Of a DNA stretch of 64,000 bases, positions 18,986 through 35,894 are shown piece by piece. The notes beneath the pieces are model-generated. The model worked only from the letters and a program-made list of their open reading frames with translations. It made no database searches and was not told the origin of the DNA. The translations under genes were made by a program, and so were the position numbers. Source of the DNA: Vulcanimicrobiota bacterium (lineage in GTDB: Bacteria > Vulcanimicrobiota > Vulcanimicrobiia > Vulcanimicrobiales > Vulcanimicrobiaceae); contig OY970223.1 of the NCBI GenBank assembly GCA_963714015.1, positions 160,001 through 224,000 of the forward strand, read 5' to 3'. Within the stretch, counting starts at the first letter, position 1. Each line of letters begins with the position of its first letter.

Positions 18986-19882
18986 CTACGCAGGAACGGC
19001 TTGGCCCGCGCGGCCGCTTAGCCGCTTTCCAAGCGGGCCCCTATCGACGAGGGGGTAGCTGAAGAAATTCGAGCCGTTGCCCACGTCGTCCCAACGAAAT
19101 CCCTCAGGCAGGTTCAGGCGGTAGTCCATCTCCGTAAGAATTCGCAGCGACTCCTTGGTTGAGTCCGGATACTCGCCGCCCATTTCCAGATAAATTAGCG
19201 GCCTGTCTCGGGCAATCAACTCCCGGGCGCCGTCCAGTACGAACGGTTCGTAGCCCTCAGTGTCGATCTTTATGAGCGCAATGCGCCGCTCGCGCAGTTG
19301 CGTAACGTCGTCGAGACGCACTACTTGAACGGATTCCGATTGTGCGCCCGAGACGTCATGCGTCAGCGTGTCGTTTCCCGACGAGCCGGAGATCCGATTG
19401 AGTGTAAGCGTGGCAGGGCTCGAGCCGCAGCCCATATTCAGCGGAGTGACGCATCCGGAAAGTCCGTTTGCGTCGATGGTGCGAAGCAGCTTCCGAAACG
19501 TTCTCGGCGACGGTTCGAACGAAAAGATCCGCCCCGACGGGCCGGTAATGGACGCCATCAGGACCGTGGTCCACCCGAGGTTTGCGCCGACGTCGATTGC
19601 GGCATCGCCAGGCTTGAGCATCGCCGAGTAGACCGGCAGATCGTTTTGATGGTACTCCGCGTCGTGCATATGATAGGTCAGCTCTTGCACGTCGCCGTCG
19701 TCCGAGTAGATCAGTTTGATCCAGCCGTAATCGGCGAACCGATCGCCGTACGGATCCTTCGGCAAACGCCGGAGCGTTGCGGCGGTCGAGTAGCGATGCG
19801 CGTGGTTGGATAGCTTTTGCAGAAGCCGAAAAGCCAGCGGACGCACGTGCTGAACGGAGAGTCGCGGCGCGCTTAACCCCAT
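18986..19882 (-). CDS. FkbM family methyltransferase
   Basis: IDVGANLG, FEP and IKIDTEGYE motifs. Confidence 0.85.
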   Translation of the reverse strand: MGLSAPRLSVQHVRPLAFRLLQKLSNHAHRYSTAATLRRLPKDPYGDRFADYGWIKLIYSDDGDVQELTYHMHDAEYHQNDLPVYSAMLKPGDAAIDVGANLGWTTVLMASITGPSGRIFSFEPSPRTFRKLLRTIDANGLSGCVTPLNMGCGSSPATLTLNRISGSSGNDTLTHDVSGAQSESVQVVRLDDVTQLRERRIALIKIDTEGYEPFVLDGARELIARDRPLIYLEMGGEYPDSTKESLRILTEMDYRLNLPEGFRWDDVGNGSNFFSYPLVDRGPLGKRLSGRAGQAVPA

Positions 19883-20009
19883 GCGCGGATGATAACACCA
19901 CTGGAAGCGCCGCAAGCGTGTCGCCGGCCCATCTCCGGCGTGGTCATCCTGCCGAAGGCGCATAGCCGAGCATGCCCATCCAAGACCGGGACCCAGCTGC
20001 GGCGCCTGC

Positions 20010-20531
20010 CTAACGCCTCCGCGGTTTTGGAAAGACTTCGGAAACCTCGAACGTCAGCCAGGGAGCGGCCGCGTGCGCAAAGCGTTCGCCGGCGTGGAAC
20101 GTGCGGACGCCGTCGAGTGAATGTGCCGCGATGGCCTTGCAAGCGGGGTCGACGTCGAGCACCAGTATGGATCCGGTTGCCAAATAGCGCTCGATCTTGC
20201 GCCGAAGGTACAGCACGCGTACCGATGGAGAGCGGATTTCTATAGCGATGTCGGGGGCGAATGGCGGCTCTTCGGCTTCTTCGTCGCTTAGCCGCCCCAG
20301 CCGTTCCTTCGAAATGAACGCGATATCGGGCACGAATTCGCTCTCGCTATTATCCGCGGCCCCCACGCAGAAGCGCCACTCGGGCCCAAACTCTCCACGT
20401 TCCGCTGCGCAACGATCGAGAATGCGTAAGAGCGCCGCCTGCACCAAGGCGTGCGTCCGCCGGGGGCTCACTTTGGGATAGGGCCGTCCGTCGAGATATT
20501 CGAGTTCCGGCGGATCGTACAACGTAACCAT
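20010..20531 (-). CDS. Uma2 family (PD-(D/E)xK) endonuclease-like protein
   Basis: EYLDG, SP..H, VPDIAF and APDIAIEIRSP motifs. Confidence 0.85.
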   Translation of the reverse strand: MVTLYDPPELEYLDGRPYPKVSPRRTHALVQAALLRILDRCAAERGEFGPEWRFCVGAADNSESEFVPDIAFISKERLGRLSDEEAEEPPFAPDIAIEIRSPSVRVLYLRRKIERYLATGSILVLDVDPACKAIAAHSLDGVRTFHAGERFAHAAAPWLTFEVSEVFPKPRRR

Positions 20532-20871: not shown

Positions 20872-22670
20872 GTGGCGCTGCCCTCAATTGCTTTTGACGT
20901 AGTTCCAATTCGCCGCGAGCCGTATTCGTTCTACGAAGACTTTCCAGGCTGCCCGCAGCCGCCGCTGATTTCCCTTCCCCCAGAAAGTCGACGCATTGGC
21001 GAAGCGTTCGCTCGGTGTCAAAGACACGCCGCTCTCCCGCATGGTTCTCCAGCTCGGCGTTCAACGCAACGGGCCTTTCGGCGTTCCTGCGCAGTGCTTC
21101 AGCGCGGCTCCCGGAGCTGTTGAACAGCGTGGATATTCGGCGGTCGGCCGGGGACATTCAAAACGCCGCAACGGTAGCGATCGAGGATGACCCGGCCTGC
21201 GCCGATGCGTTTGTCCGAAGCGCAAGTCTTCTCAAAGCGGCTTGGTCGATGTATGCGGACATCTTCAGCGGCCGCTTTGCACCCGACGAACTCAACGGAG
21301 TGCCGCTCGAGATGCGGCAGTATCCGAACGTGTTCGGAACGACGTCCTGCTACGAGAACGGCGCGATCCGCCGGCGCAAGAGCGCCGCCGTTTCTCGAGT
21401 TTTGGTTCTTGCGCGCGGACAAACGTTCGTGCTCGACTTCGGCCGGGATTGGGCCAATCTGGCAATCGATGATATTGCGAGCGCCTTCAAGAAAACGTGG
21501 AGCGAATCGTACGCATCGGATGCAGCCAATCGCGGAGCGAGCCTTGGTCTAGTATCGGCGACGAACGATAAACTGCAGCGATCGCTATTCGAAACGACCC
21601 TCCGTCATGCGACGAATCGCCAATCGCTCGCGGAGCTCCAGAATACCTTCTTGACGATTTGTCTAGATTTGGATGCGGAGCCGCGATCCTACGCTGAAGC
21701 GCTGCAGATTGCTCATGGAGGAAACACGCCGAATCGCTGGTTCAACGCAAGCACGCAAATTGTGGTTTTCGGTAACGCGCGGTCTTGCGGGATTTTCAAT
21801 TTCTCCGCTTGCATCGACGGCAACGTGATGATGCGCACCGCAAGCGAGCTGCGCGCCCGTGCGGCTCGGTACACTTCCCAGGCGGAGCATCGTGCGGAGC
21901 GGATGGGGGAGTCCCCGCCGAAAGCGCGGCGGCTCCGCTGGCTCATAGATGCGCAGGTTATCAAACGGGCGCAATCCGATCTCGCACAACTCGCCGACAG
22001 CGCGCAGTTCACTTTTGAACTTCCAGGCTATGGAAGCGCGCGATTCCATTCCCGAGGATTGGAACCGGTTTCAGCCTTCGTCATGGCGGTCAATATTGCG
22101 GCGTCCCGGATACTCCGCCGAGCACCCATCGTGTCGGAGTTTCTTACGCAGTCGCGATACCGGTACATGGGCGTCCGGTCAATCGTAACGACCACTCCTG
22201 AACATTTACGTTTTTTCGAGGCATTAGAATTACCCCAGCGAGATGTTCGTCATGCGCGGGCCGCTTTCGAAAACGCCTGCGCGAAACGGGCGCAGGCCTG
22301 CCGCAATGCTCGCTCCGTCTTGGCAATTCTTCCCGCGATCGATCTCTTCCGGAGCACCCTAGACACGCGCGGCCGAAAGACGTTCAATCGCAAGCTCTAC
22401 GGGTGCGTCGCCTTGCTGAGACGGCTGGGCCTTTCGGTGCCGCCGACCGACGTCACCCTCTCCTCTCCGGCGCTCGCGCCGGGAGTCCGATTCGTGGGAC
22501 GTTCGGGTGTGCGAACGCGCAGCACCGGCGGATTCCTGATGCATTATCACCTCTTAGAAGATCGGCTGGTGGTCACCGTTATGCCCGGCATCGAATGCCG
22601 CCATTCCAACGAGACTGATGGTTGCAGAAATTCGCCGGGCTCTGGACGATCTGCTGAACCTTTTTACTAA
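20872..22670 (+). CDS. Choline/carnitine O-acyltransferase family protein; ends uncertain, probable frameshifts
   Basis: PLEMRQYPNVFGTT, VLARGQTF, ICLD and NRWFNASTQIVVFGN...IDG match the PLCMxQY..F.TT and NRWxD..Q....NG....EHS..DG family motifs. Confidence 0.75.
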
Positions 22671-22726
22671 TAGTAATTGCTCCTCCGCCGAAGGTGCGGA
22701 CGGCTGAATCGCAAACACAGATGGTT

Positions 22727-22768
22727 GCCGGCTCATTACGCACGCCGGCTTGCGTACTAAAACGGAGG
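22727..22768 (+). promoter_or_regulatory. Hairpin plus AAACGGAGG RBS upstream of precursor P1
   Basis: GCCGGC-N11-GCCGGC followed by TGCGTACTAAAACGGAGG; similar element precedes P2. Confidence 0.55.
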
Positions 22769-22777
22769 CGCCATCTC

Positions 22778-22948
22778 ATGGAGTACGCCGCACCGAACGT
22801 CCTGACGTCTTACCTCGTTCCGGAGCTCTCTCGGGATGCAAGGGGCTTTGCCAGCGATCCCGTCTTCTGCGATCGTGACGAGCGCGCAGACTCGGGCCAT
22901 TATCCGGACTGCACGTATACCTTCGTGCCTCGCGGCGGGTACGACTAG
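22778..22948 (+). CDS. Putative RiPP precursor P1 (56 aa): MEYAAPNVLTSYLVPELSRDARG-FASDPVFCDRDERADSGHYPDCTYTFVPRGGYD
   Basis: GGAGG RBS; YxxP leader; paralogous to three other small ORFs; immediately upstream of a JmjC gene. Confidence 0.85.
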   Translation: MEYAAPNVLTSYLVPELSRDARGFASDPVFCDRDERADSGHYPDCTYTFVPRGGYD

Positions 22949-23064
22949 CCCGCCGCTTTTGCGGCATCTCGCCAAACGGCCCATTAATCCGACCGCAGAC
23001 GGCTCAGCGCTCTATAGTACGACGGCACGTATGGCCGTCCGTTGCCCTCGGATACGCTCATTTT

Positions 23065-24301
23065 ATGTGGAGCACTTCGCCTGCGGGGCGCGCCGCTTTG
23101 GCATGGCTGCTCACGCCGCTTTCGATTGAAGAGTTTCAATCGCAGTACTACGAGCGTGCGCCGATGCACGTTGCCCGCGACCGAGCTGGATATTACCAGC
23201 GCGTCTTCGATCTGCTCGAAGTGGAACGCATTCTCTACGCCAGCGAGCTTCACAAAGCCGATATCCGCCTGGTCAAAGACGGCGTGCCGGTGCGGCCGGA
23301 GTCATACCTGGTTCCGAAGCCGGTCTGCAAAGAGAACGAGCTCGAGCCGTATACCGATCGGGTCGACGCCGATCGGATCAGTGCGCTGTTTGCGAGCGGG
23401 TGCTCTATCGTCATGCACGACGTGCGCTCGCTTTCGGCTCCCGCGGCAAATTTCTGCCGTGAGTTGGAGATGCTCTTTCATCACCGCGTCTCGCCCAACA
23501 TGTATCTTACGCCCCCCGGTAATCAGGGCTTCGACGCGCACTACGACACGCACGATACGGCGATCGTGCAGATCGAGGGAACCAAGCACTGGCGCGTCTA
23601 CGAGTCGGCGTTTCCGCTTCCGCTGGACGATCAAACGTTCGATAAGCGCCTACACACTCCGGGAAAAGTTTGCATCGAGGCAGACCTGCGCCCCGGCGAT
23701 TTCCTCTACATCCCTCGCGGTTTTTTGCACGAGGCCAAGGCGAACGAGGACCTTTCGCTTCATTTGACGCTGGGTTTATATCCGCGTCGCTGGATCCAGG
23801 TGCTAAAGAAAGCGCTGGACGATGCCGGCGAGGCAGCGGAGAACGCGCTGCTGCGAGAGACGGCCACAGCCGAGAGCGTTCCGGCGCTGCACGCACTGCT
23901 GCAAAGCATCTTGGCGCATAGCGCGCTCTGCGCTGCCGAAGTCGCGATCGAAAACCAATTCGTGCGAGAACGGCGAAACGGGCTGGACGGCCAGATGAAT
24001 CAGATTTCCCGCTTGCGGGAGCTGGGCGAGGAATCGCTGGTTGCGCTGCGGCCGAACGTGCTGTACGAGCTGACCGAGAGCGAGAAAACCGCGCGGTTGG
24101 CGTTCTCCGGAAAGAATTTGGTGTTCGGAGCCGGCGCAAGCGGCATCATCCGGGAACTCGAAGGCGCGGCTTCGCGCGCGGGCCGGCGATCTGCTCAAGC
24201 ACGATCCCAAAGCGCTGGCGATCCTGCGTAAGCTGATTCAGGAAGGCTTTGCCGTTCAACTTCCTCCCGCGCAGCAGCGCGCAGCGCGAACGGTAGCCTA
24301 A
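23065..24301 (+). CDS. JmjC/cupin_4 (YcfD/NO66-like) Fe(II)/2OG oxygenase 1, frameshift near 24180
   Basis: YLTPPGNQGFDAHYDTHD, GTKHW and YIPRGFLHEA; C-terminus ALAILRKLIQEGFAVQ lies in a shifted frame ending TAA at 24301. Confidence 0.9.
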
Positions 24302-24556
24302 CTAAACACCGGCACGCTCGCCGAAACGTCCGTTCTGCACGTGCCGCGCAACCACCCGGGATAATACAGCCGGTATTGCAGTTTAGCCGCCGTCCGACCT
24401 TAGCGCCGGCTGCACCACATAACGCATAGTCCGATCGGCCCTCACGCCGAACATTTCACGTGTTTCTCAGGTCTTTCTCAGCAGCGGACGCCCCAGCGCA
24501 AGATGGTGCGCAGGGCGTTTGTGGCTCTCTCCACCGGTGCGTTATGCTCTGGTTGT

Positions 24557-24596
24557 GCCGGTGTATGCGCAACACCGGCGTGCTTACAAACGGAGG
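24557..24596 (+). promoter_or_regulatory. Hairpin plus AAACGGAGG RBS upstream of precursor P2
   Basis: GCCGGTGT-N7-ACACCGGC followed by GTGCTTACAAACGGAGG; possible -10 TATGCT at 24543-24548. Confidence 0.55.
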
Positions 24597-24606
24597 CACT
24601 ATTCTT

Positions 24607-24783
24607 ATGGAGTACACCGCACCCAAACTCCTGACGTCGTATGCGGTTCCAGATCTTTACAGCGATGCCAAAGGCTTTGCCAGCGACCCGCTGTATTGCG
24701 ACCCGAACCGGAGTGGCGATCTGGGTAACTACCCGAATTGCAACCCAAGCGCCAACATCGTTTGGCACCAACCGTACGACTAA
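24607..24783 (+). CDS. Putative RiPP precursor P2 (58 aa): MEYTAPKLLTSYAVPDLYSDAKG-FASDPLYCDPNRSGDLGNYPNCNPSANIVWHQPYD
   Basis: GGAGG RBS; clear paralog of P1; followed by a terminator and a JmjC gene. Confidence 0.88.
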   Translation: MEYTAPKLLTSYAVPDLYSDAKGFASDPLYCDPNRSGDLGNYPNCNPSANIVWHQPYD

Positions 24784-24812
24784 CGGATTACCGGCGGCTG
24801 GCGCCGCCATCG

Positions 24813-24850
24813 ACGAAGACCCGGCAAGTTCGTGCCGGGTCTTCGTTTTT
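24813..24850 (+). terminator. Intrinsic terminator after precursor P2
   Basis: 14-bp perfect stem ACGAAGACCCGGCA / TGCCGGGTCTTCGT followed by a T-run. Confidence 0.85.
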
Positions 24851-24964
24851 GCATGGGCTATCCGGCCTATGTGAGTTAAGTGTTCCAGGTCACGCCTACG
24901 TGAGGCCGGCGCCCGTTGGCGGCTCGCTCTTCGCGGACTACGCTAGAGGAAAAGGAGCCGACTG

Positions 24965-26191
24965 ATGGCCGCTGTTTCGCGCGATCGCACGACCCTGGCG
25001 TATCTGCTTGCGCCTCTTTCGATCGACGAATTCCTCAATGGGTACGCGCAGAGATCGCCTTTGCACGTCCGACGGGACGTCGAAGCGTATTATGAGCGAT
25101 ACTTCAACCTGAGCGAGTTCGAACGCGTCATATTCGGCTGTAAAATCACGACCGATGATCTGCGGATGATCAAGGACGGAACGCCGGTGCGTGAGGAGTC
25201 CTACATCTGGGAAGCTCCGAAAAAGTATACACCGCCTACGGTAACGTATCGCAGCAGCGTCGTGGACGCAGACCGCTTGGCCGGGCAGTTCGCGCACGGC
25301 TGCACGGTCAACATGAACAACATCGAACGCTACTCGCCTGGCGCGGCGTCGCTCGCCCGCGATCTTTCCGCGTTCTTTCAGAGCGGGGTTGGCGCAAATG
25401 TCTATCTGACGCCGCCGGGAAACCAAGGGTTCGGCGCCCACTACGACACGCACGACACAATGATCTTACAGATCGAGGGATCCAAGCGCTGGCGAGTATA
25501 CGAGCCGACGATCGAGTTGCCGCTCGACCATCAAATTTATCATCGCATCGGACATACGGTGCCCGGTCCATTGCTCTTCGAAACCGATTTGATGCCCGGC
25601 GATTTGCTCTACTTGCCGCGCGGCTTCTTTCACGAAGGGAAAGCCAACGAGGAACTCTCACTCCACGTCACATACAGCATCGCTCAGCCGCGCTGGGTGC
25701 AAGTTGCAATCGAAGCCCTCATGCGAGCCGCGGAATCGGACGTCCGCCTGCGCCGCTTCGCGGTCGATAGTCCTTCCGACGTCCCGGCCGCCCTCGCCGC
25801 GGCGTTGACCCCGGAGTTGCTGCAAGCCGCGCTGGACCGGTTGCGCGCTGAATTCCATGCCGTGTACCGCAGCGAGCTGGACGGCCAGCTGCGCCAGGTT
25901 GCGGCCTTGAACGATCTCTCGGAGCATTCGTTTATCTCCAAACGGCCTAGCGTTCTCTATGACGTCGAGGAAACTCCGAACGGCGTGCGCCTGACCTTCG
26001 CGGGCAAGACGGTCGGTCTTCCAGCCTCTGCAAAAGCCGTTGTCAACGAGCTCGACAGCGTTTCGGCCGTTGCCGTTTCCTCGCTGGTTGCGCACGATCC
26101 TAAGGCGCTCAACATCGTCCGGCGCCTCATTCAGGAAGGCTTTGCCGTTCAATTGCGGCCCGAGCGCAACCACAGCGCATCGGTTGCCTGA
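24965..26191 (+). CDS. JmjC/cupin_4 oxygenase 2
   Basis: GFGAHYDTHD, GSKRW and YLPRGFFHEG; AAAGGAG RBS. Confidence 0.92.
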   Translation: MAAVSRDRTTLAYLLAPLSIDEFLNGYAQRSPLHVRRDVEAYYERYFNLSEFERVIFGCKITTDDLRMIKDGTPVREESYIWEAPKKYTPPTVTYRSSVVDADRLAGQFAHGCTVNMNNIERYSPGAASLARDLSAFFQSGVGANVYLTPPGNQGFGAHYDTHDTMILQIEGSKRWRVYEPTIELPLDHQIYHRIGHTVPGPLLFETDLMPGDLLYLPRGFFHEGKANEELSLHVTYSIAQPRWVQVAIEALMRAAESDVRLRRFAVDSPSDVPAALAAALTPELLQAALDRLRAEFHAVYRSELDGQLRQVAALNDLSEHSFISKRPSVLYDVEETPNGVRLTFAGKTVGLPASAKAVVNELDSVSAVAVSSLVAHDPKALNIVRRLIQEGFAVQLRPERNHSASVA

Positions 26192-26213
26192 GCGGCCATG
26201 AACTGCGCATAAA

Positions 26214-27176
26214 ATGATCCCCCAATCAGCCGTGCCGATCCGTCTTATCCGCCGCGAAGGAGAAATCGGCGTCGATTGGCTCCGGCTCACTGCGTCGAAC
26301 ATGTCCGAACCGTTCTTCTTTCAGACCGTAAAACGGCTCAGGGAAGCCGGAGAACGCTACGTTTTCACCGGAGCCGACGAGTTGACGGCCTTTGCCGAAC
26401 GCTCGCACGACGTGAAGACCGCCTTTATTTTTCACGTTTCGCACTGCGGGTCGACGCTTCTCGCAAATGCGTTGAAAACCGTGGCAAATGCAGTTGTGAT
26501 CTCGGAACCGGCGTTGATGACGCCTGGTCAGCTTTTGTCGCCCTCGGCACGAAAGGCGTTCGGCCGATCTACGCTCGAGGCGCTCATCCTGGGCGCCGTC
26601 AACGCTTACGCTCTGAACGGGCCGCCAAAGCGTTACGTGTTTTTTAAGTTCATGGACTTGGCCAGCCTTGCGCTACCGACGCTGCGCCGCATGTTTCCGG
26701 CCGTCCCGTTTGTGTTCATCTATCGCGAACCCAGCCACGTCATTGCCTCGAACCTTGAGGAGGTGCCGGAAGATCTGCGTCTGAGCGCTGCGCCCGACAT
26801 TAAAGCCTTGCTCGGGAAGGATCAGGCTTGGGAGCCTTCCGCGACGGCCTGGTGGTCAGCAATATACGAGGCCGAGTGTCTGCGGGCGGCCGTAGCGCCG
26901 AACACGGTTATGGTAGACTACTGTGATCTGAACGATACCCGCGCAGTTCAGTTGATGTGCCACCTGGGAATGAACAGTGGCGACATCGACAAGGCTGCAG
27001 TCTCGACAACATTCGGGCGCTACTCGAAGGCCTCGCCAACCCAGAACATGACGTTCTCGCCGGCAGCGGACTACGAGCGCCGCCGCACTACGGCAGAACG
27101 AATGGATCCTGGAGAGTATCTCCCCGCAAGCGCAGCTTACCGGCGTCTGCGCGCGATGAAAGCGCGAATCGCATAG
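26214..27176 (+). CDS. Sulfotransferase-like (PAPS-binding P-loop) protein
   Basis: FIFHVSHCGSTLL (5'-PSB-like), ISEP and FVFIYREP..VIAS (3'-PB-like) motifs. Confidence 0.7.
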   Translation: MIPQSAVPIRLIRREGEIGVDWLRLTASNMSEPFFFQTVKRLREAGERYVFTGADELTAFAERSHDVKTAFIFHVSHCGSTLLANALKTVANAVVISEPALMTPGQLLSPSARKAFGRSTLEALILGAVNAYALNGPPKRYVFFKFMDLASLALPTLRRMFPAVPFVFIYREPSHVIASNLEEVPEDLRLSAAPDIKALLGKDQAWEPSATAWWSAIYEAECLRAAVAPNTVMVDYCDLNDTRAVQLMCHLGMNSGDIDKAAVSTTFGRYSKASPTQNMTFSPAADYERRRTTAERMDPGEYLPASAAYRRLRAMKARIA

Positions 27177-27183
27177 GAGCGTT

Positions 27184-28416
27184 ATGTGGAACTTTAAGTA
27201 TGACCAAGTGCTGCGCCGTTTCCTGACCCCGGTTCCGCTTGAACGTTTCCTGTCCGAATACTACGAGCGCAAAGTTCTGTACCTTCCGCGAAATGACGCG
27301 CAGTTTTTTCAGGGCGATTTCAGTCTGGCCGAGGTCGATCGATTCCTTCACAGCGTTGAGATTTCGGCCTCTTTTCTGCATGTCCTAAAAGACGGCGTCG
27401 GGACACCCGTCGCGGAGTATTCGCGCAACGTTCCGCGTTCCGATCCCGTTACGCATACCAGCGGCCAGGCGGCGATACTGGACCCGGGTCTCGTCGGCGA
27501 CTTTTTTGCCCGCGGCCATACGCTGCACTTCGATCATATACGTTCGTATAGTCCACAAGCAGCAGCGCTCTGCCGCGAGCTCGAGGGTTTCTTCGGCCAT
27601 CGCATCCGATGCACCGCATTCTTGACGCCGTCGCACAGTAAGGGATTTCGACTTCACTACGACGTGTACGATACATTCATTCTGCAGATTCACGGCTCCA
27701 AACGCTGGCGCGTGTCCGAAACGATGTTTCCGCTGCCGCTCGTGAGCCAGTTTTACACGCCTGACATGCAACCCGGCCCGTTGCTTCTGGATACCGTGCT
27801 GCGCCCTGGGGACTTCTTGTATATGCCGCGCGGCACGTTTCACGAAGCGGCAGCGGACGACGAAGCCTCGCTGCACTTGTCGATCGTGCCGGACCCCCTG
27901 CGATGGGAAGCGGTATTTCACCGCGTGCTGTCGGAGGTTGCGAAGGAAGAACTCCCGCTCCGTAGCAGCACGGCGACTCCGCTGAACGAGGAGGAGCTGG
28001 AAGTCATCGGAAGGCGCGTCTTTTCACGGGTGAGATCCGAAACCGCCAAGGACGAGCTGGAACTCGATTTTTACACGACGCGGCGAAACGACGGCAGCGG
28101 GCAGCTGCAGCAGATCTTGGATGCCGATCGGATCACGCCGCTTACGCAGATCTCCATTCGCGCCGGGTCGCTGTACAGCCTAAGCGAATCGGACCTGACC
28201 GCAACGGTGCGCTTTTCGGCAAAAGTCCTTCAGCTGCCGCGGAGTGCAGCGGAAATCGTCCGAGCTCTCGAATTGAACGGCCCGATGCCCGTGGCGGCGT
28301 TTCTCAAGTACGACGGAAACGCGCTTGCAATCGCGCGCACGTTGCTCAAGAGCGGCTTCTTAATGATGTCCGCGGAGCCGGAGAAGACCGGTGCAGTGCG
28401 CGTCCGATTGGGCTAA
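27184..28416 (+). CDS. JmjC/cupin_4 oxygenase 3
   Basis: GFRLHYDVYD, GSKRW and YMPRGTFHEA motifs. Confidence 0.92.
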   Translation: MWNFKYDQVLRRFLTPVPLERFLSEYYERKVLYLPRNDAQFFQGDFSLAEVDRFLHSVEISASFLHVLKDGVGTPVAEYSRNVPRSDPVTHTSGQAAILDPGLVGDFFARGHTLHFDHIRSYSPQAAALCRELEGFFGHRIRCTAFLTPSHSKGFRLHYDVYDTFILQIHGSKRWRVSETMFPLPLVSQFYTPDMQPGPLLLDTVLRPGDFLYMPRGTFHEAAADDEASLHLSIVPDPLRWEAVFHRVLSEVAKEELPLRSSTATPLNEEELEVIGRRVFSRVRSETAKDELELDFYTTRRNDGSGQLQQILDADRITPLTQISIRAGSLYSLSESDLTATVRFSAKVLQLPRSAAEIVRALELNGPMPVAAFLKYDGNALAIARTLLKSGFLMMSAEPEKTGAVRVRLG

Positions 28417-29053
28417 AGAGTACGCCGTCGCTTTAGAGGCGCGAGCAAATCCCTGGCCCCGCGCGCTGCAGCCCGGCTCCCTGGGAGCGCTCCTTTCTCC
28501 GGACGAGCGTGAGCCGGACTGCCATCGCTGGCTAGCGCATCGTATCTCCGAGGCGAGGTCGCAGCAGGCATCCCTTGTCGGCCGCGCGCAGGACGCGGTT
28601 CGCATGGAGTTCACGTTGCGCTATTCCTGGTCGATACCGACGCGTGAAGCACTCGATGCAATCGCACGCGCTCGCCGGGTGGAGTCTTAGAGGTCGGCGC
28701 CGGAAACGGCTACTGGTCGTTTCTGCTGCGCTCCCGCGGCATGCCGTTCGTTGCGGTCGACCGTTTTCCGGTTGAGAGCGGTTCAAACCCGGCCTGGAAG
28801 CTCCGATCCGCAGCCCGCTCGCGCCCAATCTCACGCGCCCTGGACGGCCGATGGAGCCGGTAAACGGAAAAGAGATCGCGACAGTACGGCAGCCGAGCCG
28901 GCGCTGCTCATCTGCTGGCTCTATTCGGCGCGCACGCTTCAAACGTATGAAGGCGGCACAATCGTGTTCGTCGGAGAGCCTCGCGGCCGTAACGATTTTC
29001 TACGAATTCTACGACGAACTGCTCGGCGAACTGGAGCGTCGCGGGGCGAGTGA
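28391..29053 (+). CDS. Class I SAM-dependent methyltransferase-like gene, several frameshifts (sequencing error or decay)
   Basis: YSWSIPTREALDAIA, then in a shifted frame VLEVGAGNGYWSFLLRSRG..VAVD, later LLICW and IVFVGE. Confidence 0.55.
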
Positions 29054-29200
29054 GCGCGATTCCGCGCTTCTTCAACTCCCACGATTCACTTTGGATTTTC
29101 CGCCGAAGAAGCGGCTCCGGACGGCCCGGCCCGATCGGCCCATTCCGGCATGATGCGCCGGTTTGATGGCTCCCGAAGGTTTCCGCGCTAAGCTGCCGCT

Positions 29201-30421
29201 ATGTGGAGCTCATCGGCAGCCGAACGGGCCGTTTTTTCTTGGCTGGTCGCGCCTCATTCCATCGACGATTTCGCCGGGCATTACGAGCGCGCGCCGTTTC
29301 ACATATCGCGCAACGAGTCCGGACGCTACGATCGATATTTCAGTTTGCAGGAGATGGAGCGCGTGCTCTTCGGGTGCGAGCTGAACGTCAAGGATCTGCA
29401 GATCATCAAAGACGGCACCGCCGCTCGCCCCGAGACCTACACTCGCTCGCATTCCGAACCGAAACATCCGCTCGATCAGGCCGCCGGTGAAATCGTGAAC
29501 CCCGACCGCGCGAGCGCCCTCTTCGCAAGCGGGTGCACGGTCGTGCTCGACAACGTCAACAAATATTCCGCGTCGATGGCGTCGCTGTGCCGCGATCTGG
29601 AGATGTTTTTCGGCTGCCACGTCAACCCGAACGTCTACATGACGCCGCCGGGAAATCAAGGCTTCGCGGTTCATTACGACACGCATGACGCGCTGATCGT
29701 CCAAATCCGCGGATCGAAGCACTGGCGCGTGTACGAGTCCGCATTCCGGCTGCCGCTCGAGCATCAATACTGGGACAAGAAACTCTACCCCGCCGGCAAT
29801 ATGGTGCTCGATATGGAGATGCGGCCCGGGGACTTCCTTTACATTCCGCGCGGCTGCCTGCACGAGGCGAAGGCCAATGACGAGCTTTCGCTGCACGTAA
29901 CCATCGGACTCTATCCGACCCTTTGGACGCACGTCGCCGCGCAAGCGCTGATGAGGGCGGCGGAGGCGCTTCCATCGCTGCGGCAGGCGGCCGACGAAGA
30001 CGCAGCGGAGGCAATCTCGGCCGAGCTCGCGCAGGTCCTTGCGCCCGCGCGTCTGACCGAAGCTCTGCGCGCAGCCCGGCGAAGCTGGCGCAACGATCGC
30101 GACAACGGCCTCGAAGGACAACTCGAACAACTCGCCGCGCTGCCGCATCTGAACGAAGCGTCGATCGTGCGCAGGCGTCCGAACCTCTCTTACGAGTGGA
30201 TGGAGACCGAGCGCGGCGTCACGCTCACGTTTTCGGGAAAAACGGTGATACTCTCCAAGTCCGCGGCCGTCGTCATTCGCAAACTCGAAGCGGCCTCCGA
30301 ACTGGACGTCGCCGCACTCTGCGAACAAGACGAAAGTGCGCTCAAAGCGGTGCGCAAGCTGATTCAGGAAGGGTTCGCGATTCAGGAGCTCGGCGGCGAA
30401 CGCCGCTATAGAATCGCGTAG
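29201..30421 (+). CDS. JmjC/cupin_4 oxygenase 4
   Basis: GFAVHYDTHD, GSKHW, YIPRGCLHEA and C-terminal KLIQEGFA. Confidence 0.92.
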   Translation: MWSSSAAERAVFSWLVAPHSIDDFAGHYERAPFHISRNESGRYDRYFSLQEMERVLFGCELNVKDLQIIKDGTAARPETYTRSHSEPKHPLDQAAGEIVNPDRASALFASGCTVVLDNVNKYSASMASLCRDLEMFFGCHVNPNVYMTPPGNQGFAVHYDTHDALIVQIRGSKHWRVYESAFRLPLEHQYWDKKLYPAGNMVLDMEMRPGDFLYIPRGCLHEAKANDELSLHVTIGLYPTLWTHVAAQALMRAAEALPSLRQAADEDAAEAISAELAQVLAPARLTEALRAARRSWRNDRDNGLEGQLEQLAALPHLNEASIVRRRPNLSYEWMETERGVTLTFSGKTVILSKSAAVVIRKLEAASELDVAALCEQDESALKAVRKLIQEGFAIQELGGERRYRIA

Positions 30422-31668
30422 ATCGTGTGACCGTCGGCGATCAAGATCGTATTTCCTAACAAAACGGGCGGCGAAACGGAAAACGGTTCATTGAACGGCT
30501 GCTCGCGCAACACGCTTCCCGTTGCGGCGTTCAATGTGTAGAACATTCCCGCCGTATCGCCGACGAATACACGCCCTCCGGCGGTCACGGGGCTCATCTT
30601 AATCGGAGCGATCGACGTGAAGCGCCAGCGCACGGCTCCCGATCGCGCGTCGAAGGCGATCAACTCGTCGCTCGTGGGCATTGCTTGAAAATACATGCCC
30701 GCGGCATAGGTGCCGGCGATGGCGCGCTCCGACGATCCGACTTCGGTGTAGGGACCGGTGCGCGGACTGCGGTAGGTCCAGCGAACTGCGCCCGTATGCG
30801 CATCCAGCGCGGTCACGATCGTGCGCCCTTCCTTGCGGCTCGACCAGTTGCTCGCGTCGTTTTCGACGTTGCTTACGAAAATCGATCCCGCGCCGTAGGC
30901 CGGCGAGCAATCCGAATTGCCGAAGGGCGCGCTCCACAGCTGTTTTCCCGATTCCGGGTCGAGCGCATACGTGCGGCAATGATAAGGCCACGTGTAGTCG
31001 CATGCGGAAACGTAGCCCACTCCGCCGGCCAGCGTCGAAGAGGCCATGGTAGCGGGACCGACCAGCGCGTCTTTCCAGCGCAGGTTGCCGGATGCTGCGT
31101 CCAAACCGTAGGCGTGAAAGTCACCGTTCGCAAAAAAGATCGTGCCGCCGTCGATCGCCGGAGAAGGCATGTCTTCGCCGACAGTCGGGAAGGCCCACCG
31201 CTGCGCGCCGGTGCGCGCGTCGAACGCGATCAAACGATCGCCGCCGGGCCGCCCCCAGACGAGATTTCCGCTGTGCTCCGGATCGGTCGAGAGTTTCGGA
31301 TTGGGGATTCGCGCATTCGTCCCGGAACCGACGTACACGATGCCGTTTGCCAGAACCGGCGTCGACATCAATACGTCGTTTGTATGAGTGCGCCACAGCA
31401 CTTTGCCGTTCTTGGCATTAATTGCCAAAAGCTCGTTCGCAAAGGTGTCGACGAAAAGCGTCGTGCCCGCCACCGCGAATCCGCCGTTGACCTGCTGACC
31501 GACGTCGAGCTTCCAATGCGTGCTGAAACCGTCCAGAGGCACGACGGCGTTGTGATCGGGCGTGCGTTGAAACATCGCCCAAGAGTCGGATGGCGACACG
31601 TTCGCGGTCGCGCCATGACTGCACGCGCAGAGAACGGCGAGCAGAGCAAGTACTGAAAGCCTTACCAT
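30406..31668 (-). CDS. PQQ-like beta-propeller repeat lipoprotein
   Basis: Lipobox-like LCAC; repeated A.DA.TG...W blades. Confidence 0.8.
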   Translation of the reverse strand: MVRLSVLALLAVLCACSHGATANVSPSDSWAMFQRTPDHNAVVPLDGFSTHWKLDVGQQVNGGFAVAGTTLFVDTFANELLAINAKNGKVLWRTHTNDVLMSTPVLANGIVYVGSGTNARIPNPKLSTDPEHSGNLVWGRPGGDRLIAFDARTGAQRWAFPTVGEDMPSPAIDGGTIFFANGDFHAYGLDAASGNLRWKDALVGPATMASSTLAGGVGYVSACDYTWPYHCRTYALDPESGKQLWSAPFGNSDCSPAYGAGSIFVSNVENDASNWSSRKEGRTIVTALDAHTGAVRWTYRSPRTGPYTEVGSSERAIAGTYAAGMYFQAMPTSDELIAFDARSGAVRWRFTSIAPIKMSPVTAGGRVFVGDTAGMFYTLNAATGSVLREQPFNEPFSVSPPVLLGNTILIADGHTIYAIL

Positions 31669-31779
31669 ACTCGAAGGTTCTTTTTGCAGCCCGATACTCC
31701 CCGCATGCAAACGTCTCATTCTGCCGTAAGCCATTACGCCCATGAAGTCACGACGCCGGGGCTTTACTATCAAAAGAGC

Positions 31780-32910
31780 ATGCGCATCGCCTTCGTCTGT
31801 CCTTTGCTTCCGCCGCATTATAACGGATGCGGAGACGCAACGGATCGGCTTGTGCGCGAGTTCCGGGAACGCGGCGACGAAACGCTCGTGCTTACCGACG
31901 ACGTCGCCGGCGTACTGCATCCCTTTCCGATGAAGAGCGTCGGCGGGTGGGGCGTGCGCTCGCTCTTCGAAACGAAACGCGCGGTGGCGGCCTTCCGGCC
32001 CGACGCGGTGATGATGCAGTATACGCCTTTTCTCTATCCGCCGCGGTCGTTGTATCCGGCGCTGGCATTGCGAGGATTACGCGGTTATCGCCGCATCCTG
32101 TACGCGCACGAGTTCTTCTATTCCGCGCAGAGCGTTGCCGTGCGGGGTCGCGCAAAAGCCGCCTACCTCGCGCTGCGCGACAAGGCCGCCCTGAGCGCCG
32201 CCGATTGGATCTACGTGGCAGGCACCGCACGGCGCGATGCTTTACTGCAGAAGCTGCCCGCGCTCGCCTCTCGCGTGAAGGTCGTTCCGTTCGGCGCAAA
32301 TGTGGAGCCGCGTCTGCCGCTCGCCGGCCGCCGCGTGCCCTATGCGCCCTACCGGCTGACGGCGTTCGGCATCGTCATGGCCCGCCGGCGAATCGAACTG
32401 CTCGTGCGCACGATTGCCGCCCTGGCGATCTCGGGCCTCGATGCGCAGCTGACCGTCGTCGGACGCGTACAAGAGCCGCAGTACCGCGAAGAATGCGAAA
32501 ACTTGGCGCGCCGCCTGCACGTCGGCGAACGGGTGCGCTTCAGCGGCCCGCTGCCCGGACCGCAATTGGCGGATGAATTCGCGCAGACCGACTTATTCGT
32601 GCACGCCGCCGCCGAAGGAGCGATTCCGTCCGCCGGAAGTTTGCTGGCCGCGCTTGCGCACGGCGTTCCGGTCCTTTGTGCTCGCACCGATTCCGACGAT
32701 GCGCTGTTTTCCGATGCTGCCGTTATCGCCGAAGCAGATCCGGATGCACTCGCCTCAGCAGCGCGTGCGCTTTTAACGAACGCCGAAGAGCTTCAGCGCC
32801 GCGCCGGACTTTGCCGCAAACTCTACGAGCGCGAGTTCGGTTGGCCCCGGATGGCGGACGCCATCGCGCGAGACTCGGCGCACGACGTCCCGATCTATGC
32901 CGCGCTGTAA
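31780..32910 (+). CDS. GT4 family glycosyltransferase
   Basis: MRIAFVCP N-terminus; GT-B C-terminal motif EGAIPSAGSLLAALAHGVPV. Confidence 0.8.
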   Translation: MRIAFVCPLLPPHYNGCGDATDRLVREFRERGDETLVLTDDVAGVLHPFPMKSVGGWGVRSLFETKRAVAAFRPDAVMMQYTPFLYPPRSLYPALALRGLRGYRRILYAHEFFYSAQSVAVRGRAKAAYLALRDKAALSAADWIYVAGTARRDALLQKLPALASRVKVVPFGANVEPRLPLAGRRVPYAPYRLTAFGIVMARRRIELLVRTIAALAISGLDAQLTVVGRVQEPQYREECENLARRLHVGERVRFSGPLPGPQLADEFAQTDLFVHAAAEGAIPSAGSLLAALAHGVPVLCARTDSDDALFSDAAVIAEADPDALASAARALLTNAEELQRRAGLCRKLYEREFGWPRMADAIARDSAHDVPIYAAL

Positions 32911-33872
32911 ATCGCGGTTTGTCTGACGAACCAGGCGACGGTCTTGGCGATGCCCTCGTCCACACTGGTCGACGGCGCCCATCCGTACTGCCGGGCGCGC
33001 GCGAGATCCGGCCGGCGGCGAGACGGATCTTCCGGCCGCGGCGGCAGCTGCTCCACTTCAAACGGAACGCCGAGCGTTCGCGCCACGCGTGAGGCGATCT
33101 CGTTCACCGAGAGTTCCTCGTCGTTGCCCAGGTTCACCGGAGTCAACTTCGGCATCGCGCATTGCGCGACGTGCAGAATACCTTCCACGACGTCGTCGAC
33201 ATACGTCAGCGAACGAGTTTGCTTGCCGGTCCCGTGAATCGGCAGCGGTTTGCGCTCCATCGCCGCAGTAATCAGCGCCGGAATCAGGCGCCCGTCATCG
33301 GCCTTCATGCGAGGCCCGTAACAGTTGAACAAACGCACGACCCTCGCATTGAGGTTTCGGGAGGCGACGGCAACGGATATCGCCGCCTCACCGAAACGCT
33401 TGCCTTCGTCGTAGCATGCGCGCGGCCCGACCGGGTTCACGTTGCCGAAGTACGTCTCCGGCTGTGGATTGACGAGCGGATCGCCGTAGACTTCCGACGT
33501 GGACGTGTAAACGAGCAGTGCGCCCTGCTCGAGCGCCACCTCTACCAAGGCCATCGTGCCGAGCGCGTTTACCGCGAGCGTCTCCCACGGGCGCGCACCG
33601 TAGGCTTCAGGACTGGCCGGAGAGGCTAAATGATAGATCGCTTCGAGCGGTTCACCGCTCGCGTGGAGTAACTCGGCTTTGATCCGCTCGGCCGGCGAGG
33701 CAACGTCACAGTAGACTAAGGTCGCGCCGCCGCGTTCGATCGCCCACTCCAGATTGCCGATGCAGCCGCTTGAGAGATCGTCCATAACCACGACGTGCTT
33801 TCCGTCTTTGCAAAGCCGATCGACCAAATGACTTCCGACGAACCCGGCACCGCCGGTAACCAAGACAGCCAT
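32895..33872 (-). CDS. UDP-glucuronate decarboxylase-like NAD-dependent epimerase/dehydratase
   Basis: TGGAGFVGS, HLASPASP, STSEVYGDP, CYDEGKR and FNCYGPRM motifs. Confidence 0.88.
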   Translation of the reverse strand: MAVLVTGGAGFVGSHLVDRLCKDGKHVVVMDDLSSGCIGNLEWAIERGGATLVYCDVASPAERIKAELLHASGEPLEAIYHLASPASPEAYGARPWETLAVNALGTMALVEVALEQGALLVYTSTSEVYGDPLVNPQPETYFGNVNPVGPRACYDEGKRFGEAAISVAVASRNLNARVVRLFNCYGPRMKADDGRLIPALITAAMERKPLPIHGTGKQTRSLTYVDDVVEGILHVAQCAMPKLTPVNLGNDEELSVNEIASRVARTLGVPFEVEQLPPRPEDPSRRRPDLARARQYGWAPSTSVDEGIAKTVAWFVRQTAIYSAA

Positions 33873-33873
33873 G

Positions 33874-35202: not shown

Positions 35203-35878
35203 CCGCCGTCGCCACTATGGGGAGCGTAGGAAGCGTCATCACCGGTTCTACCGTCGTTTCGGGCACGGCCGGCGCTTCGGCTCCGGCGCGCATTGCCGGT
35301 TCCGGACGTCGATCGGTCGCGCGTCCGATAGCGACGACGCCGAGAATCGATCCGCCTACGTGCCGCAGCGACGCCATGAGTTCTTGATCGGCGCGCGCCG
35401 GTTTGCGTCCGAAGCGGAAGCCCAGAATCACCCCTTGACTGCCGGCGGCGAACTGCATTGCCATCGGATTGTTGGCGATGACGCCGGCGCTGATAATCGT
35501 CACGTCGTAACTGCTGCGCAGGTCGCCCAGGATCGAGCACAATTTAACGAACGAGGTGTTGGTATGCGGCGCATTCTTCGCAACGGCCACCGCGGACAAA
35601 TTCTTGATCGTGCCGTTGACGGCGCTCTTCGGAATAGCCGCGATCTCCGAGGCAGCCGGGACCTTTAGTCCGAGTTCATCCTTGAGCATTTCGCCGCCGT
35701 ACGGATCCACCACGACGGTTCGATAGCCGGCTTCGGCGAACGCTTTGCTCAAGTTGCCCGCGACCATCCCGGGATCGTCCTCTTCGGTCGCGGCCCCCAC
35801 CACGACAATGGCCGGCATCGTGAGTGCCGCTTCGAGGGTGACGCGCAGTGCCGCGTATTCTTCGCTTACGGGTTTCAT
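35180..35878 (-). CDS. CpsD/Wzc-like BY-kinase domain with degenerate Walker A
   Basis: NLSKAFAEAGYRTVVVD, YDVTII and ILGVV motifs; follows the co-polymerase gene. Confidence 0.6.
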   Translation of the reverse strand: MKPVSEEYAALRVTLEAALTMPAIVVVGAATEEDDPGMVAGNLSKAFAEAGYRTVVVDPYGGEMLKDELGLKVPAASEIAAIPKSAVNGTIKNLSAVAVAKNAPHTNTSFVKLCSILGDLRSSYDVTIISAGVIANNPMAMQFAAGSQGVILGFRFGRKPARADQELMASLRHVGGSILGVVAIGRATDRRPEPAMRAGAEAPAVPETTVEPVMTLPTLPIVATAGEVVATR

Positions 35879-35894
35879 GTTGAATGGCTCCTGA

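Follow-up and report, generated by a model that had tools for sequence, protein, structure and literature searches.

The analysed window, a stretch of 64,000 nucleotides, derives from a soil-dwelling member of Eremiobacterota, an uncultured phylum. Its segment 22778-30421 contains, all on the forward strand, genes for four JmjC oxygenase paralogues (J1-J4) together with two homologous precursor peptides (P1 and P2), one sulfotransferase and one methyltransferase. The gene order proposed in the initial annotation, precursor-JmjC followed by precursor-JmjC-sulfotransferase-JmjC-methyltransferase-JmjC, was borne out by the open reading frames and the Pfam matches. The genes of this segment and its immediate neighbours are the following:

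21015..22670, + strand: choline/carnitine O-acyltransferase-family gene (PF00755, E 3.4e-36)
22778..22948, + strand: precursor P1, 56 aa, with a 26-residue leader containing YxxP and a 30-residue Asp-rich core with two Cys and three Tyr
23065..24301 (annotated ORF to 24231), + strand: JmjC oxygenase J1 (PF08007, E 1.1e-25)
24607..24783, + strand: precursor P2, 58 aa (leader alignment, orthologues)
24965..26191, + strand: JmjC oxygenase J2, 408 aa (PF08007, E 2e-27)
26214..27176, + strand: PAPS-type sulfotransferase-like protein, 320 aa (PF13469, E 0.0065, a weak match)
27184..28416, + strand: JmjC oxygenase J3, 410 aa (PF08007, E 3.1e-24)
about 28420..29153, + strand: SAM-methyltransferase-like remnant (PF13489 match of one piece, below the cut-off)
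29201..30421, + strand: JmjC oxygenase J4, 406 aa (PF08007, E 3.7e-28)
30406..31920, - strand: PQQ-repeat (BamB-like) beta-propeller (PF13360, E 3.2e-41)

The acyltransferase gene lies 108 bp upstream of P1 on the same strand, and a homologue was absent from all related loci examined; its membership in the cluster is uncertain. At the other end, the propeller gene is convergent with J4. In five further loci (L048, L049, L028, L024 and L027) the last JmjC gene is likewise followed by one for a PQQ_2 protein, so that 6 of the 11 examined clusters have one. The propeller of the window scores far below the PQQ-dehydrogenase model cut-offs, with the best likeness to BamB, and represents a recurrent neighbour whose functional link to the cluster is unproven. 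Pfam searches detected neither a protease nor a dedicated exporter among the genes of the window cluster, and NCBIfam gave no match for J2, J3, the sulfotransferase or the acyltransferase. Between positions 20500 and 31000, no sigma-70-like promoters were predicted (2.7 expected), and the seven terminator-like sites (12.2 expected) give no signal. No RNA run containing the stretch was found among public sequencing runs; the single DNA run that matched it (0.07 of sampled words) has reads covering scattered pieces only.

Both precursors, P1 with a GGAGG motif about 10 nt 5' of its ATG, consist of a 26-residue leader and an Asp-rich core of 30-32 residues. Four precursors, P1-P4, had been initially assumed, but tblastn of both peptides against the whole 3.56 Mb genome yielded P1 and P2 alone and thus does not bear this number out. 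Alignment of 10 peptides revealed invariant leader positions M1, Y3, P6, Y12, L17, G23, F24 and S26, with the YxxP motif present in every leader, and a variable core. As is typical of RiPPs, the precursors are short and join a conserved leader to a hypervariable core. YxxP is a mapped recognition sequence of RiPP recognition elements (RREs) (PMC12710340). Two orthologues of P2 were found, P0269 (88% identity) and L050:7784-7960 (83% identity). Between P2 and the latter, 17 codons differ synonymously and 10 non-synonymously (8 and 1 in the leader, 9 and 9 in the core, respectively). The differences at codon positions 1/2/3 number 9/6/25, a third-position bias, and P2 is under purifying selection. 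The 17 cores compared are rich in Asp, Asn and Gly. Asp is the sole residue common to all 17 and accounts for 16.9% of core residues (Glu, 0.5%). Cys occurs in 15 cores, mostly as two residues, and is absent from two; Tyr is absent from 10, with three residues each in P1 and P2. One stretch of the P2 core, which we took to resemble plant PSY-type sulfated peptides, was dropped from consideration as it is not conserved in the orthologues P0269 and L050.

The four JmjC proteins share 33-48% pairwise identity by tblastn (34-47% for J2-J4 aligned to J1) and match PF08007 (JmjC_2) at 85-98 bits (cut-off 22; E about 1e-24 to 4e-28). The HxD...H iron triad, initially annotated in all four, is indeed kept: H159, Y160, D161, K174, H222 and E223 (J1 numbering) are invariant across J1-J4, and H159, D161, K174 and H223 are invariant in an alignment of 59 homologues. 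By analogy, K174 presumably binds the C5 carboxylate of 2-oxoglutarate (2OG). The variable insert noted before the cupin core is likewise real; it occupies alignment columns 83-100 and is the internal part of the J2 model predicted with the lowest confidence (blocks 81-100, pLDDT 82 and 72). The length of about 410 residues attributed to all four proteins is correct for J2 (408), J3 (410) and J4 (406), but not for the J1 ORF, which has 388 residues because of a frameshift near 24160. Three-frame translation showed that the C-terminal RRE-like domain of J1 carries on in a different frame up to about 24301, and tblastn matched J2 residues 353-405 to 24131-24286 in another frame. J3 is the divergent paralogue (33-37% identical to J1, J2 and J4) and forms a J3-like clade with the second JmjC proteins of G366:C17 and G294:C1 (SH-aLRT 98, the supports being those of a quick tree in which the row G366C22 is out of frame and meaningless).

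The AF2 model of J2 (pLDDT 93.2) comprises a JmjC domain, a helical domain and a C-terminal RRE-like domain, and it aligns with full-length NO66 (Foldseek E 3e-27, TMq 0.72, 466 aligned columns, about 21% identity), displaying the three-domain ROX architecture of JmjC domain, dimerisation helices and C-terminal winged helix. Profile searches with the JmjC family matched NO66 (E 1e-62), MINA53 (9e-55), YxbC (8e-31) and E. coli YcfD (3e-14). From the designation "ROX/YcfD-type" we thus retain the ROX architecture, whereas the likeness to YcfD gives way to the far stronger matches to NO66 and MINA53. In the model of the C-terminal domain, DSSP assigned strands at residues 18-23, 26-31 and 34-38, followed by helices at 42-51, 57-63 and 67-77, with an additional strand at either end; the same beta3-alpha3 order is found in the full J2 model and corresponds to the N-to-C succession of three strands and three helices by which RREs are defined (PMC12710340). 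The top structural matches of this domain were ROX winged helices (Z 8.3-10.6; MINA53 10.6, NO66 8.8). Matches to RREs (PqqD Z 7.3, TbtB 7.1, PbtF 7.0, MccB 7.0, TbiB1 6.7 and lasso B1 6.3) had Z values below 8, which may reflect a common arrangement, and Foldseek against solved RREs gave E values of at least 0.04. All ROX enzymes possess this C-terminal domain, also those whose substrates are ribosomal proteins. Bregman et al. (2025, mSystems, PMC12710340) describe PF08007 proteins fused to RRE-like folds and, citing Xia et al. (2025), JmjC homologues of bacteria in RiPP-like contexts; the present domain and YxxP leader fit both points of this account, whose available text does not link the RRE-fused PF08007 proteins to a named precursor family, a product or a cluster architecture.

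Of the two putative tailoring enzymes, the sulfotransferase scored 17.2 bits against PF13469, compared with 23.1 for its orthologue in L048 (50% identity) and 27.5 for a paralogue in L022 (cut-off 27). All six PDB profile matches with E below 0.05 were protein-tyrosine sulfotransferases 1 and 2 (E 0.0017-0.046). Directly 5' of the L048 orthologue lie genes for TauE, CysD (PF01507, 1.5e-27) and CysN/APS kinase (PF01583, 8e-59), a cassette that links the enzyme genomically to PAPS supply. The L049 locus contains a CysQ-like PF00459 gene and a MatE exporter adjoining the sulfotransferase, and in the genome of the window CysD and CysN/C are located outside the cluster. Tyr is present in 6/6 cores of sulfotransferase-bearing clusters versus 0/7 cores of those without the enzyme, an association in which just two independent cluster lineages carry the sulfotransferase. 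The position of Tyr differs between G294:C2 and L049. Sulfation, omitted from the initial annotation, is a supported second modification, with Tyr as its probable site.

Three-frame translation of the methyltransferase gene showed that, in this assembly, its coding sequence is spread across three or more frames. Its 56-aa motif-I piece (28681-28848) matched PF13489 with E 0.0012, under the cut-off, as did the L048 orthologue, which is one open frame (E 2.4e-4). A soil contig 95-99% identical to the region has 8 letters fewer in 28837-29112, and removal of these 8 letters gave a single reading frame, which aligns with the L048 methyltransferase over its residues 59-286. The gene was probably broken by assembly indels, and as J1 and the methyltransferase are both frameshifted in the assembly, some of the cluster could be undergoing decay. 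When 301 genomes of the family were searched at the DNA level for the methyltransferase region, the matches were all short and at chance level.

Comparison of related loci supported the pairing of peptide and oxygenase genes. A leader-bearing peptide was found upstream of JmjC in all eight close-homologue loci outside the window (L001 and L003-L009, of which L007 rests on the unpublished genome G247) and three more in metagenome loci, L049 and L050 being among the loci with precursor and JmjC; the 12 loci of homologues with 31-33% identity (L010-L021) yielded no such peptide. Precursor and modifying enzyme are thus co-localised across genomes, as expected of a RiPP cluster. The whole array is kept at 50-70% identity in a metagenome relative, represented by L050 and L048 (1738 bp overlap, 100% identity). 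There the JmjC genes number six, the methyltransferase is intact and the PAPS-synthesis cassette lies beside the sulfotransferase; identities of the orthologues are 67% for J1 (L050), 68% for J2, 50% for J3 (L048) and 70% for J4 (L048). The synteny proposed for checking at the outset is observed both in the close loci and in this relative. Close homologues were found in 8 of 401 genomes of the phylum. Distant ones (31-33% identity) are present in 18/18 genomes of the genus g21 and have no leader-bearing peptide beside them. Three ORFs retrieved with a loose leader pattern (two in L001, one in L004) were discarded, as the rest of the leader is absent and a stricter pattern misses them.

With gene content, homology, fold, leader conservation, synteny and purifying selection on P2 established, we consider it probable that the locus is a RiPP cluster in which leader-guided JmjC oxidation, most likely Asp/Asn hydroxylation, is combined with Tyr O-sulfation and methylation. 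The C-terminal beta3-alpha3 domain of J1-J4 would act as the RRE holding the YxxP leader, and the Fe(II)/2OG-dependent JmjC domain would oxidise core side chains. The likeliest chemistry would be beta-hydroxylation of Asp, plus Asn where present, and the diverged paralogues may take different positions or residues. The sulfotransferase would then O-sulfate the product from PAPS, most likely on Tyr, and the methyltransferase would add a methyl group; export and a function of the product are presumed. The products are most likely oxidised, sulfated acidic peptides of a family so far uncharacterised. The initial view of the JmjC proteins as the main maturases of ribosomal peptides gains plausibility from the precursor-JmjC adjacency, the YxxP leader, the RRE-like domain and the array kept in the relative. 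Since Asp alone is found in all 17 cores, the shared target would by elimination be Asp, with Asn close behind, rather than the Arg or His of ribosomal oxygenases, an argument that presumes one target type among all orthologues.

Within the same kind of RiPP cluster, some or all JmjC paralogues could instead cross-link the core (Cys-Tyr or other macrocyclisation) or hydroxylate His, Arg, Pro or Tyr/Phe, which we regard as unlikely. An alpha-KG-dependent Cys-Tyr cross-link in a RiPP has been reported as the first of its kind (PMC12636437, citing Xia 2025), and the paired Cys of most cores and the three Tyr each of P1 and P2 would suit such a reaction; known RiPP JmjC enzymes target Orn and Phe, and 4-6 diverged paralogues per two peptides are compatible with several chemistries. 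Yet the two cores without Cys and the 10 without Tyr are each accompanied by JmjC, and the nearest solved relatives, NO66, MINA53 and YcfD, are hydroxylases according to their PDB titles. It is very unlikely that the peptides are not secreted natural products but give rise to a cofactor, a ligand or a metal chelator that works with the PQQ-repeat propeller. The convergent PQQ_2 gene does occur in at least two different wider contexts, the window cluster encodes no exporter or protease, and the cores are Asp/Asn/Gly-rich; against this, the genomes are related and could owe their shared synteny to inheritance, the propeller is missing from five clusters, the protein itself is BamB-like and under the PQQ-dehydrogenase cut-offs, and L049 includes a MatE exporter.

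Peptide-JmjC pairing in 8/8 close and three metagenome loci, purifying selection on P2, 4-6 paralogues per cluster, the sulfotransferase and PAPS cassette inside the array, and an occurrence in 8/401 phylum genomes, too patchy for ribosome maintenance, make it extremely improbable that the JmjC proteins act as ordinary oxygenases of ribosomal or other proteins and that the small ORFs are not their substrates, even though JGI names some of them "L16 Arg81 hydroxylase", their ROX architecture is full-length and the distant homologues of g21 lack the peptide. The present enzymes do share the three-domain architecture and the HxD...H triad with NO66, MINA53 and YcfD; their genomic partner, however, is a small leader-core peptide and not a ribosomal protein, and they occur as 4-6 paralogues per operon together with tailoring enzymes. 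Going beyond the preferred reading of leader-guided Asp/Asn hydroxylation with sulfation and methylation, the cluster could represent a separate RiPP class, with ROX-type JmjC maturases carrying a built-in recognition element and with disulfide-looped, polyanionic peptides of beta-hydroxy-Asp/Asn and sulfotyrosine that could chelate metal, possibly with the propeller; we consider this decidedly unlikely. Beta-hydroxy-aspartate is a siderophore ligand, and products of a poly-hydroxy-Asp type, should they be made, may be ribosomal metallophores.

RiPP pathways with JmjC enzymes have been described before, and the present cluster is a variation on that theme. Hydroxylation of precursor residues by JmjC-type enzymes is proven for Orn with BipG of biphenomycin (PMC12707348) and for Phe with CzlI of curacozole (PMC11575548), both likewise encoded beside the precursor. 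As far as their descriptions allow comparison, BipG and CzlI are single tailoring enzymes in systems with class-defining MNIO/rSAM or YcaO-type enzymes, whereas here JmjC proteins are the sole recurrent maturases. The structure nearest to CzlI is YxbC (PMC11575548), which the present family matches at 8e-31 compared with 1e-62 for NO66. The Cys-Tyr macrocyclisation of Xia et al. (2025, J Am Chem Soc) similarly employs a 2OG oxygenase as a RiPP maturase. Since JmjC and ribosomal oxygenases are known mainly from ribosomal proteins and histones, and in RiPPs as single tailoring enzymes, the cluster offers a candidate defined substrate for an enzyme family with mostly unknown bacterial functions. 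The cluster is also relevant to the question, raised for eukaryotic JmjC proteins (PMC12710340), of whether the ROX winged helix is generally a peptide-recognition element. It would further add a rare modification, sulfation served by a dedicated PAPS supply, to a phylum without cultured natural-product chemistry of such kind.

RaxX/RaxST of Xanthomonas is a sulfated RiPP system with RaxPQ, a dedicated CysD and CysN/C, beside it, which resembles the arrangement of dedicated CysD and CysN/C next to the sulfotransferase in the L048 relative. A PAPS-dependent sulfotransferase is also part of the RiPP cluster of sulfonated lanthipeptides (PMC11143521). From these sulfated RiPPs the present cluster differs in the family placement of the sulfotransferase (weak TPST-like match), in its precursors and in the combination with JmjC. 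Within the phylum itself, pythonamide (precursor EreA) of marine Eremiobacterota is a RiPP that is hydroxylated by EreI, of the Asp/Asn beta-hydroxylase family, and methylated (Paoli et al., 2022, PMC9259500). Its maturases differ from those described here, the terms JmjC, cupin and sulfotransferase having 0 occurrences each in the available text of that study.

The JmjC-precursor cluster is real and coherent. The stretch (G000:C1:160001-224000) belongs to a genome consisting of a single contig of 3.56 Mb; public records list its relatives under the names Candidatus Eremiobacterota, Vulcanimicrobiaceae or Baltobacteraceae. The cluster genes from P1 to J4, together with an acyltransferase gene 5' of P1, all lie on the + strand (21015-30421), with one gene convergent to J4:

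Genes of the cluster and its convergent neighbour (window positions)
from 21015, + strand, choline/carnitine O-acyltransferase-family gene, first in the row (PF00755, E 3e-36)
22778-22948, + strand, precursor P1 (ORF)
23065-24231 as ORF, + strand, JmjC oxygenase J1 (Pfam JmjC_2)
24607-24783, + strand, precursor P2 (ORF)
24965-26191, + strand, JmjC oxygenase J2 (Pfam JmjC_2)
26214-27176, + strand, sulfotransferase-like gene
27184-28416, + strand, JmjC oxygenase J3 (Pfam JmjC_2)
about 28420-29153, + strand, methyltransferase-like gene, broken
29201-30421, + strand, JmjC oxygenase J4 (Pfam JmjC_2)
30406-31920, - strand, PQQ-repeat (BamB-like) beta-propeller gene, convergent with J4

Read from its sequence, the cluster probably encodes a RiPP with JmjC maturases, here class-defining and multiplied, and with sulfation in addition, the chemistry being putative. 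The initial annotation had described four JmjC paralogues interleaved with precursors in this gene order, which is borne out by the ORF positions and by the JmjC_2 matches of all four J proteins (E 1e-24 to 4e-28). It had also counted four precursors, P1-P4; whole-genome tblastn with P1 and P2 returned two only.

Profile and structure searches uphold the ROX (ribosomal oxygenase) half of the earlier ROX/YcfD-type assignment and rank YcfD well behind other ROX enzymes. The AlphaFold2 model of J2 (mean pLDDT 93.2, input alignment of 59 homologues) has its best solved matches in full-length NO66 (Foldseek E 3e-27, TM-score on query 0.72) and MINA53, with YcfD of Rhodothermus and E. coli far behind (E about 1e-17 to 1e-18), and searching the family profile against PDB sequences gave NO66 at 1e-62, MINA53 at 9e-55, YxbC at 8e-31, Rhodothermus ROX at 2e-21 and YcfD at 3e-14. 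Given these rankings, the J proteins are three-domain ROX-type JmjC oxygenases, with the eukaryotic histidyl hydroxylases as closer relatives than YcfD. The iron triad claimed for all four proteins (H-Y-D...H-E) is indeed present, K174 is likewise kept in the alignment, and the enzymes look catalytically competent, because H159, D161, H223 and K174 are invariant among the 59 homologues.

The last ~90 residues of the J proteins, about 315-402 in J2, form strands 18-23, 26-31 and 34-38 followed by helices 42-51, 57-63 and 67-77 (model pLDDT 85), the strand-then-helix order that defines the RiPP recognition element for Bregman et al. (RRE; PMC12710340). The best structural matches of this domain are the winged helices of MINA53 (Z 10.6) and NO66 (Z 8.8), and the next are rich in RREs (PqqD 7.3, TbtB 7.1, PbtF 7.0, MccB 7.0, TigE 6.9, TbiB1 6.7; further down, lasso B1 6.3, McbB 6.1 and TruD/LynD 5.7-6.0), although Z values of 6-7 to RREs are not decisive alone. 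The same source treats RRE-like folds as legitimate in PF08007 proteins, with bacterial homologues in RiPP-like contexts, and lists YxxP among the mapped recognition sequences, as one that several RRE groups use (PMC12710340); the invariant Y3-x-x-P6 of the precursor leaders matches it. We infer that the C-terminal RRE-like domain binds the 26-residue YxxP leader.

JmjC homologues at E <= 1e-20 occur in 64/401 genomes of the phylum, a tally including the window's genome and the unpublished G247 and G230, and close homologues (39% identity or more) in only eight (G000, G294, G366, G151, G400, G247, G142, G055). The expectation that small ORFs generally accompany such genes was confirmed for the close homologues, a short ORF with the shared N-terminal region lying just upstream at 8/8 loci (L001, L003-L009; L007 rests on the unpublished G247). 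At 12 loci of 31-33% homologues (L010-L021, mostly one genus), a leader-bearing peptide was absent from the upstream 700 nt. This distant subfamily, its identity reckoned to J2, is present in 18/18 sampled genomes of that genus, g21, and may represent a housekeeping ROX ancestral to the RiPP enzymes.

Ten distinct aligned peptides share invariant M1, Y3, P6, Y12, L17, G23, F24 and S26, followed by a variable tail. The precursor family is rare, since its profile found 11 members only among 5.8 billion proteins. P2 and its orthologue on the metagenome contig L050 are 77% identical in DNA; 27 codons differ, 17 of them synonymously, and the differences at codon positions 1/2/3 number 9/6/25. The leader carries eight synonymous changes and one non-synonymous change, the core nine of each, and GGAGG stands about 10 nt 5' of the ATG of both P1 and P2. 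Judged by these features, the small ORFs are translated, and constraint falls on the leader more than on the core, as is typical of RiPP precursors. At L024 (10723-11475, genome G151), where the core is without Cys, an ATP-grasp_5 gene (E 7.6e-7) directly 3' of the JmjC gene may encode an extra maturase of that cluster. ORFs without a Pfam match (389, 189 and 213 aa) also lie inside precursor-JmjC operons (L022 10479-12233, in G294:C2; L001 9210-9851).

Two metagenome contigs, L050 and L048, share an overlap of 1738 bp (100% identity) and together carry, in order, a precursor (PA), a JmjC gene, the J1 orthologue (67%), a J3-like JmjC gene, the P2 orthologue (83%), the J2 orthologue (68%), a TauE-family membrane protein, CysD, CysN/APS kinase, the sulfotransferase (50%), the J3 orthologue (50%), an intact one-frame methyltransferase, the J4 orthologue (70%) and a PQQ-repeat protein, beyond which, just as in the window, come the glycosyltransferase and the epimerase. 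Each window JmjC is 50-70% identical to its orthologue versus 33-48% to its paralogues (pairwise identity among J1-J4). A quick tree gives J2, J4 and J1 different partners among the database proteins (SH-aLRT 100, 100 and 97) and sets J3 apart, in a J3-like clade (SH-aLRT 98) that also contains the second JmjC of the two-JmjC clusters. Since the paralogues are nearer to their orthologues than to each other, and from these pairings, the duplications are ancient and have been retained, consistent with functional specialisation.

The genes next to the cluster (window 31684-37223; L001 1909-7445), which encode a glycosyltransferase, an NAD-epimerase and O-antigen-ligase-like, tyrosine-kinase-like and chain-length-determinant proteins, are syntenic in G366, G142 and L048; at L001 the RiPP cluster is opposite in orientation to these neighbours. 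The PQQ-repeat gene converges on the last JmjC in 6/11 clusters, some of which differ in their wider neighbourhoods (window 30406-31920; L024 12121-14400; L027 10801-11769; L028 3621-5063; L048 8797-10320; L049 10495-11784).

Sulfation, at a predicted site, is better supported than the hydroxylation chemistry. Among the 401 genomes, close sulfotransferase homologues were found in G000 and G294 only, both beside precursor-JmjC units. In the PDB the profile had six matches at E < 0.05, every one a protein-tyrosine sulfotransferase. A PAPS-synthesis cassette directly precedes the sulfotransferase orthologue in L048, and a CysQ-like gene is present in L049. Tyr occurs in 6/6 cores of clusters with the sulfotransferase versus 0/7 of those without it in the examined flanks, an association that is suggestive and short of proof, because the enzyme-bearing clusters represent only two independent lineages. 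The window's genome also encodes CysD, CysN/APS-kinase (matched in two pieces) and TauE elsewhere (G000:C1 about 2816600-2820000), so PAPS supply need not sit in the cluster.

Asp is the sole residue found in all 17 cores (13 with known context and four database-only), making up 16.9% of core residues versus 0.5% for Glu; Asn occurs in 15/17, Cys in 15/17 and Pro in 16/17. Provided that orthologous enzymes act on one type of residue, Asp would be the target, and likely Asn too. JmjC enzymes such as FIH are reported to hydroxylate Asn and Asp (PMC11575548), and because of this precedent and the ubiquity of Asp we tentatively favour beta-hydroxylation of Asp/Asn by the J enzymes, at somewhat less than even chances. 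The extra paralogues may act on other residues or form cross-links: JmjC enzymes are described as hydroxylating Orn (BipG, PMC12707348) and Phe (CzlI, PMC11575548) in RiPP precursors, and a 2OG dioxygenase forming a Cys-Tyr cross-link has been cited (PMC12636437).

J1 is frameshifted near 24160, its last ~50 residues continuing in another frame to about 24301, and pieces of the methyltransferase lie in at least three frames. Parts of the cluster are matched at 95-99% identity by contigs from a soil-metagenome run. The contig spanning 28837-29112 has eight letters fewer than the window, at seven places, while seven other listed pieces are gap-free. With these eight letters removed, the covered part translates in one frame that aligns with residues 59-286 of the unbroken methyltransferase in L048, and we read the breaks as mostly assembly indels. 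Real decay is conceivable. One methyltransferase shift is left outside the stretch covered by the soil contig, and the J1 site also lies outside that coverage. At 16232-18962 (- strand), two long overlapping ORFs (608 and 461 aa), the first ending in Arg-rich nonsense, look like parts of a single large regulator gene that a frameshift has interrupted. Such a break is in keeping with an assembly prone to indels: the genome scores 89.6% complete though it is one contig.

JmjC modification of RiPP precursors is already established; the new element would be a multiplied, class-defining JmjC array with sulfation, a modification called rare in RiPPs (PMC11143521). RRE-JmjC fusions have been reported bioinformatically (PMC12710340). 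The literature searched describes neither this precursor family nor arrays of several JmjC genes, though subscription papers or supplements could do so, and the one paper found on a characterised Eremiobacterota RiPP (PMC9259500) makes no mention of JmjC, cupin or sulfotransferase. In that marine RiPP, pythonamide, an FkbM enzyme is described as a maturase (PMC9259500). An FkbM-family methyltransferase gene (PF05050, E 2.7e-20) lies at 18986-19963 (- strand), 3 kb upstream of the cluster and on the opposite strand, and a Uma2-family putative endonuclease gene (PF05685, E 2.4e-17; 20010-20531, - strand) stands between it and the acyltransferase gene.
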